The notes under the pieces were generated by a model. That model was given only the letters and a program-made list of their open reading frames with translations. It ran no database searches and was not told the origin of the DNA. Shown here in pieces: positions 39,935 through 40,780 of a stretch of 64,000 bases of DNA (positions are counted from its first letter, which is position 1; every line of letters starts with the position of its first letter). The position numbers were made by a program, and so were the translations under genes. Source of the DNA: Escherichia coli (lineage in GTDB: Bacteria > Pseudomonadota > Gammaproteobacteria > Enterobacterales > Enterobacteriaceae); NCBI RefSeq assembly GCF_003334405.1, contig NZ_QOWM01000001.1; one strand, written 5' to 3'.

Positions 39935-40780
39935 TCACATTATGCCCATGAAGCCATGTACGCCCATATACACACCGACTAAGCCAATCAACAGACTGGA
40001 AAAATAGGGGGCGCGTTTAGCGAGAGTGTTAAATCCGCTCCAGCGTTTTGCGACCTGCTGAACGCTGATTGCTGCGCCAACGCCTACGGTGACAAGCGTA
40101 AACGCCAGGCCAATGCTGAAACTGACGACCAGTGTTGCGCCCAGTGTCAGGGCTTTCAACTGAATGCATATCAATAGCACGGTAATTGCTGCCGGGCAGG
40201 GGATAAGGCCACCGGTTAAGCCAAATAACAAAATTTGCCAGTTGGTGACCTCTCTACCATCAAAGCGTCGTTTAATGTCATTGGCATGGGCTCGTGCATG
40301 GGCATCCTGATACTCGCCATGTTCGTGATGGTGATGATGTCCATGGTCGTGGTGATGTTCGTGGTCTTGATGATGTTCGTGATCGTGATGATGGTGATGA
40401 TGCTCATAATCATACTCGTGCATATTCTCCAGCCAGTTGCGTTCGCCGCGCCAGGTACGCCAGAACATCCAGAACGCGGTGCCAATAATGATCACTGCGG
40501 AAATCAGCTGGAGCCACGGTTCTGCTGATTGAGCAGTAAAGCGCTTGCTGATCACCATCCCGCCAAAGGCAATTAACCAGACCACTGCGGTATGCGAAAT
40601 AGTTGCTGCCAGTCCGAGCATCACCGCTTGTTTAATGGTGCCTTTGATGGCGATGATAAACGCCGCCATCATCGTTTTTGAGTGCCCTGGTTCCAGGCCA
40701 TGAAGCGCACCAAGTAAGATGGCGCTGGGGATGAAGAACCAGGCGTTTCCTTGCTGAAGAAGAGTTGTAAATTCGGTCAT
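39935..40780 (-). CDS. rcnA: nickel/cobalt efflux transporter with histidine-rich loop
   Basis: 281 aa; MTEFTTLLQQGNAWFF... N-terminus; His-rich segment HEYDYEHHHHHHDHEHHQDHEHHHDHGHHHHHEHGE. Confidence 0.92.
   Translation of the reverse strand: MTEFTTLLQQGNAWFFIPSAILLGALHGLEPGHSKTMMAAFIIAIKGTIKQAVMLGLAATISHTAVVWLIAFGGMVISKRFTAQSAEPWLQLISAVIIIGTAFWMFWRTWRGERNWLENMHEYDYEHHHHHHDHEHHQDHEHHHDHGHHHHHEHGEYQDAHARAHANDIKRRFDGREVTNWQILLFGLTGGLIPCPAAITVLLICIQLKALTLGATLVVSFSIGLAFTLVTVGVGAAISVQQVAKRWSGFNTLAKRAPYFSSLLIGLVGVYMGVHGFMGIM

Follow-up and report, generated by a model that had tools for sequence, protein, structure and literature searches.

Strain-level length variation in the histidine-rich loop of the nickel/cobalt exporter RcnA of Escherichia coli and its correspondence to the typing locus TR7

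The window analyzed here is a stretch of 64,000 nucleotides of Escherichia coli DNA (contig NZ_QOWM01000001.1). Its minus strand carries an open reading frame of 281 codons (positions 39935 to 40780) that shares 100% DNA identity with rcnA as annotated in E. coli strain 300709. The predicted product matches the NCBIfam model for nickel/cobalt efflux transporters (NF007454) over residues 1 to 281 with 563 bits, against a cutoff of 195, and the Pfam NicO model (PF03824; 5.4e-72) over residues 13 to 281. By homology, the gene is rcnA, which encodes a nickel/cobalt efflux protein of the inner membrane belonging to the NicO family, and the repetitive tract described below encodes the central His-rich loop of that protein. 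Efflux of Ni and Co and resistance to both metals have been established for the RcnA of K-12 (Rodrigue et al. 2005, as cited in PMC5183578 and PMC3391293).

The genes on either side are those expected for an rcn locus. The divergent gene rcnR (40901 to 41173, plus strand), encoding the Ni/Co-responsive repressor, was recognized by an NCBIfam equivalog model (NF011613; 197 bits against a cutoff of 138) and is annotated as such in the identical locus. A pattern search of the rcnA-rcnR intergenic region found two TACT-G6-N-AGTA motifs on the minus strand (40818 to 40832 and 40838 to 40852), compared with none in shuffled sequences, and we take these motifs to be of the operator type bound by RcnR. 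Downstream of rcnA lies the accessory gene rcnB (yohN; 39375 to 39713, minus strand); this open reading frame had no NCBIfam match, and other strains have rcnB annotated at the same position. Overall, the window has the rcnR-rcnA-rcnB arrangement, with putative operator motifs for RcnR in the region of the divergent promoters. A consensus scan of the rcnA-rcnB gap yielded no terminator-like site, and a hairpin can be seen by eye at approximately 39826 to 39850. Just past rcnB is a 344-aa open reading frame (38259 to 39293, plus strand) whose match in other genomes is called yehA, a putative fimbrial-like adhesin. On the other side of the locus, a thiM-like open reading frame (41396 to 42184) is preceded by a thiamine pyrophosphate (TPP) riboswitch (41265 to 41361, plus strand), which scored 71 bits with Rfam RF00059 (gathering score, 54).

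Hydropathy analysis places a hydrophilic loop of approximately 72 residues between two hydrophobic segments of RcnA (residues 88 to 109 and 183 to 224). The loop contains 23 His and 7 Lys/Arg residues, and its hypervariable core is a His/Asp/Glu-rich tract of 108 nt (40313 to 40420, minus strand; residues 121 to 156), in which every length difference between alleles is located. These residues read exactly HEYDYEHHHHHHDHEHHQDHEHHHDHGHHHHHEHGE, and 21 of the 36 are His. The initial annotation, which was made from the DNA letters and their open reading frames, had placed a His-rich loop of RcnA within 40290 to 40440 and had quoted precisely this peptide. The seven Lys/Arg residues suggest, by the positive-inside rule, that the loop is probably cytoplasmic, and the canonical RcnA loop is likewise predicted to be cytoplasmic (PMC11247825).

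Few codons are used in the loop (CAT, CAC, GAT, GAC, GAA, and GAG), so that its DNA forms a nest of short direct repeats with units of 6, 9, and 18 bp and larger, all multiples of three. Within 40319 to 40402, Tandem Repeats Finder reported arrays with periods of 18, 12, and 9; the period-18 array (40319 to 40393) comprises 4.2 copies (score, 101) with 80% matches and is thus an imperfect repeat. It includes, at 40349 to 40384 (minus strand), two 18-bp units where K-12 has one: GATCACGAACATCATCAA, which encodes DHEHHQ, and GACCACGAACATCACCAC, which encodes DHEHHH. These units differ at 3 of 18 positions, which suggests that the duplication is old or was imported. Next to them is a perfect tandem duplication of CATCATCAC (40385 to 40402, minus strand; encoding HHHHHH), which codon-level comparison shows to be present as a single copy in a 278-aa allele (loci L002 and L015). 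A pure head-to-tail GACCAC array is absent from the window tract, where one GACCAC adjoins a GATCAC.

The same codon composition accounts for several open reading frames that overlap the tract. The initial annotation had described spurious overlapping frames on both strands, and three are present, encoding 89 aa (40216 to 40485, minus strand), 97 aa (40235 to 40528, plus strand), and 64 aa (40294 to 40488, plus strand). The CAY, GAY, and GAR codons of the tract are read as ATC or ACC in a shifted sense frame and as ATG or GTG, or as GAT or GGT, on the antisense strand, which is why stop codons are absent from the other frames. Among 22 alleles, 66 of the 77 variable sites outside the tract fall at the third codon position of rcnA, indicating that selection acts on the rcnA frame only. 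Judged from their codons, the three overlapping frames are spurious and are by-products of codon composition alone.

In K-12 (strain JM109, with the same tract as MG1655), rcnA is 825 bp long and encodes 274 aa. The tract is 84 nt long in K-12 and 108 nt long in the window, a gain of 24 nt, or 8 codons, that consists of the second 18-bp unit and 6 nt in the His run. At the other end of the gene, the stop region of the window allele (39935 to 39940) contains TGA where K-12 and most of the sampled alleles have CGA (Arg) followed by TAA. The window protein therefore lacks the C-terminal Arg and is 1 residue shorter there than that of K-12, a feature shared with the 278-aa allele. The lengths of 281 aa and approximately 274 aa given in the initial annotation for the two proteins were both correct, but their difference, which had been read as consistent with slippage in the tract, is a net value of 7 aa that combines 8 additional codons in the tract with the loss of 1 residue at the C terminus.

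Of 5426 complete E. coli genomes, 5366 had a match to rcnA and 60 had none. A systematic sample of 59 evenly spaced full-length rows from the 5366 positive genomes contained genes of 804, 810, 822, 825, 837, 840, 846, and 852 bp, together with one frameshifted copy of 824 bp. Approximately 85% of this sample belonged to the 825-bp (274-aa) class; allele frequencies here are approximate, being taken from rank positions and full-length rows. Since this single class is so prevalent, the tract appears to have been stable over long periods in most lineages. The window allele itself is uncommon, as only 59 complete genomes (approximately 1%) had a whole-gene identity to it of at least 99%. For the short tract queries of the (HE)n and window types, the band at or above 99% is inflated by partial matches of a shared 3' end.

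A targeted set of 23 loci, chosen to span the matches, was fetched and compared with the window, giving 24 E. coli loci in all. The initial annotation had considered the tract to be probably variable in length through slippage, and among these loci it is far from uniform: there are 11 tract lengths (63 to 135 nt; 13 to 24 His per tract) and 13 protein lengths (267 to 291 aa). The phase of the indels agrees with a coding repeat, since the tract length is divisible by three in 23 of the 24 loci, the exception being that of strain FDN-24, which is annotated as frameshifted. The flanking parts of the gene, of 360 nt and 375 nt, are constant in length in all 24 loci, and among 22 alleles only 10 of the 245 residues outside the tract vary (3 of 120 on one side and 7 of 125 on the other). 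In the protein database, the best 120 matches were all RcnA proteins of E. coli or Shigella, with more than 40 distinct loops of 28 to 54 residues and up to 32 His.

Three or more loop architectures coexist within E. coli. The first, found in K-12, ABU, and the window, ends in DHGHHHHHEHGE; the second, of the O157 type, has the form HEHHHHDHEHHQ(DH)nEHHHHHEHGDNEE; and the third has the form (HE)nHDHEHHHHHEHGE. In strain OkiPb01695 (NZ_AP042570.1), the loop reads HEHDHEHHHHDHEDHQDHDHEHHHHHEHGDNEE, in which a 5' half of the ABU/B2 type is joined to a 3' half of the O157 type. From the arrangement of these halves, this allele is apparently a recombinant or an intermediate of the K-12/ABU and O157 types, convergence being the other explanation.

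At the codon level, the differences between alleles consist of whole in-frame units of 6, 9, or 18 bp. Among the (HE)n alleles, the third type, strain AF3 has (CACGAG)5 and strain 1517k has (CACGAG)4, and the O157-type alleles among the fetched loci have (GACCAC)4, (GACCAC)6, (GACCAC)9, and (GACCAC)10. When an O157 tract with 20-nt flanks was used as the query, 325 genomes matched, nearly all of them O157:H7. The matches were of 139, 145, 151, 157, 163, and 169 nt, corresponding to n = 4 to n = 9 in steps of 6 bp, with a mode at n = 6 (135 genomes at 99% identity or higher); (GACCAC)10 was found in strain 2571. Seven states, from n = 4 to n = 10, within clonal O157:H7 point to a high unit-wise mutation rate of (GACCAC)n. 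The window-type family, recognized by its HEYDYE head, includes longer database proteins: P0005 has an extra DH (2 aa), P0004 a duplication of HHHHHHDHE (9 aa), and P0001 a duplicated block of 18 residues (18 aa). The window-type tract thus varies as well, although it is interrupted and rarer. With its interrupted and imperfect repeat, the window allele probably mutates far less readily than does the pure array of O157.

Two frameshifted copies of the gene were seen. In FDN-24 (NZ_CP158147.1), a 1-bp deletion in the His tract changes CATCATCACCAC to CATCACACCAC and leaves a tract of 110 nt, which may reflect either true inactivation of the gene or an error in sequencing. In CFS3313 (NZ_CP026939.2), rcnA is annotated as frameshifted owing to the loss of 1 bp in a run of five A residues at gene position 102. 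We considered this second lesion as a case of tract-driven phase variation and rejected it, as it lies near the 5' end of the gene and outside the His tract.

The length variability of the RcnA loop is already established and is a routine epidemiological tool. The TR7 locus belongs to the O157 scheme for multilocus analysis of variable-number tandem repeats (MLVA) published by Noller et al. (2003), for which the primers and the unit GACCAC are listed in PMC2246123, and is the same as O157-19 of Keys et al. (2005; PMC3768571). Each TR7 primer has one site in the window: the reverse primer matches exactly at 40114 to 40133 (plus strand), and the forward primer matches at 40481 to 40499 (minus strand) with 1 mismatch, which corresponds to the Gly/Ser100 codon difference between the window allele and the K-12 and O157 alleles. 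The two sites are convergent, span 386 bp, and bracket the tract; the His tract is therefore the TR7 locus. None of the typing papers examined gives a gene name for TR7, and the link between TR7 and rcnA is accordingly one that is made in this analysis. The window tract occupies the same chromosomal locus as TR7/O157-19, and the loop of rcnA in which it lies is also where O157 genomes have their GACCAC (Asp-His) array. However, the window allele differs from TR7 as it occurs in O157 in that it is interrupted and built from 9-bp and 18-bp units, lacking both a pure GACCAC array and an O157-type DNEE tail. The E. coli MLVA locus CVN014 was also considered as a counterpart of the rcnA tract and was dropped, as it ranges from 1 to 15 units within ST131, unlike rcnA (PMC3407997, which gives no genomic position).

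Similar loci are known from other genera. In Salmonella, the variable-number tandem repeat (VNTR) STTR5, in use as a typing marker worldwide, lies between two domains of YohM (RcnA), and alleles of 8 to 14 units are dominant in Salmonella Typhimurium (PMC5183578); the locus is also VNTR-19 of Salmonella strain UK-1 (PMC3391293) and appears in VNTRDB as a "genuine VNTR" whose unit is CACGAC (PMC1781188). As in E. coli, the VNTR is of 6 bp, lies within coding sequence, and falls between the two membrane halves encoded by the orthologous gene; rotating its unit gives GACCAC, the unit of E. coli O157. The Salmonella arrays are longer and purer than those of E. coli, and the positional homology rests on the description in those papers. 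In Klebsiella pneumoniae, MLVA locus 27 is a 6-bp CATGGT repeat in rcnA with 0 to 19 copies and the highest diversity index of its scheme (PMC3948817). Here, too, the VNTR has a hexanucleotide unit and lies in the part of rcnA that codes for the His-rich region, although in another genus and with a unit that encodes His-Gly or similar rather than the Asp-His of E. coli O157. Cable bacteria have proteins of the same family in which the central loop is greatly expanded, to 100 to 123 aa with 33 to 53 His (PMC11247825). Loop length and His count thus differ between lineages there as well, but those expansions are far larger, are fixed between genera, and have been proposed to be tied to a special nickel physiology, in contrast to a strain-level VNTR.

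A functional parallel is offered by the cation diffusion facilitator (CDF) transporters. His-rich cytoplasmic loops of CDF proteins such as AtMTP1 and ZnT are considered to bind the substrate, or buffer it, and to influence activity; like the RcnA loop, they are of low complexity and are placed between transmembrane helices of an exporter of divalent metals. The CDF family is unrelated to NicO, and the likeness concerns the possible working of the loop and not family membership.

Taken together, these results make it very probable that the tract encodes a putatively metal-binding, probably cytoplasmic loop of RcnA and that it is a coding VNTR, generated by slippage with occasional recombination, in which many lengths are tolerated. 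Strand slippage during replication would add or drop whole repeat units, a process suggested by the pattern of in-frame unit differences, and occasional recombination between alleles may also add or remove units. Neither the reading frame nor the transmembrane parts on either side would be harmed, such that many lengths could be tolerated and persist, with most changes in length being nearly neutral. A pure array, such as (GACCAC)n in O157:H7, would change fast enough to tell isolates of one clone apart, and an interrupted array, such as that of the window allele or K-12, would be more stable and serve as a marker of lineage.

Recombination could be given a larger role than this, with the diversity arising mainly from ancient, divergent alleles, the tract being a mosaic hot spot, and length being inherited together with the allele. 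The distinct allele families (K-12/ABU, O157 with its DNEE tail, and (HE)n), the apparent chimera in OkiPb01695, the occurrence of GATCACGAACATCATCAAGACCACGA in both window-type and O157-type alleles, and the steady length of the tract in most lineages are all consistent with such an origin. The mosaics and shared segments do indicate a contribution from recombination between divergent alleles. As the main source of the diversity, however, recombination is unlikely, as it leaves unexplained the one-unit steps of 6 bp from n = 4 to n = 10 within clonal O157:H7, where the flanks are identical, and the duplications in the window-type family, which are perfect tandem copies of 9, 27, and 54 bp. 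A quite different use of the repeat would be an on/off switch, in which changes in the repeat shift the frame and reversibly inactivate rcnA. The annotated frameshift and 110-nt tract of FDN-24 are what such a switch could produce, but this lesion is a single-base deletion rather than a change of unit and may be a sequencing error, and the frameshift of CFS3313 is far from the tract. Because every repeat unit (6, 9, or 18 bp) is a multiple of three, with 23 of the 24 tracts in frame, phase variation can be excluded for practical purposes.

Slippage with tolerance of many lengths must also be weighed against adaptation, according to which selection would fit the length of the loop to the metal exposure of each lineage through its Ni/Co-binding capacity, selectivity, or rate of efflux. 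Complete genomes have tracts with 13 to 24 His, and database proteins reach 32; this range, together with the presence of three structurally different architectures within one species, would fit such tuning. Shortening or altering the His-rich loop of CDF transporters such as AtMTP1 changes their activity or selectivity. Selection by metals has been speculated upon for the Salmonella locus by the authors of PMC3391293, as has stabilizing selection toward mid-range STTR5 copy numbers (PMC5183578), and the greatly expanded loop of cable bacteria (PMC11247825) points in the same direction. On the other hand, copy number differs among O157:H7 isolates that are nearly clonal and come from sources of the same kinds, as expected from neutral drift of a VNTR, and one length class is dominant across ecologically diverse strains. 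For an effect of loop length on Ni/Co resistance, our literature search returned speculation only and no experiment. We therefore regard adaptive tuning of the loop as improbable, and it seems similarly doubtful that Ni/Co buffering or efflux capacity is quantitatively determined by loop length and His count (13 to 32 His), with the tract under lineage-specific selection and not a neutral VNTR. Some constraint on the length of the loop is nonetheless possible. If tuning did occur, the 281-aa window allele should differ measurably in metal tolerance from the common 274-aa form, and if length changed Ni/Co handling, MLVA and genome collections would amount to a natural experiment on a His-rich transporter loop.

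Regardless of the forces acting on its length, TR7 can now be named as the His-loop-coding region of rcnA, and each MLVA allele at this locus therefore represents a variant of a metal exporter protein. Typing at this locus has been routine since 2003, as TR7/O157-19 in O157 and as STTR5 in Salmonella. Annotation pipelines and pangenome clustering should expect to encounter many RcnA lengths here, along with spurious overlapping open reading frames.

Larger changes were also seen at the locus in individual strains. In E. coli ZF31 (NZ_CP047455.1), just the first 111 bases of rcnA are left, beside yehA, which suggests that the locus is deleted now and then. In strain 2018-05-2CC (NZ_AP027877.1), an IS1A transposase gene (1089 to 1292 of the fetched locus) lies approximately 35 bp downstream of rcnA, in the place usually taken by rcnB, and rcnB may thus be disrupted or displaced in this strain.
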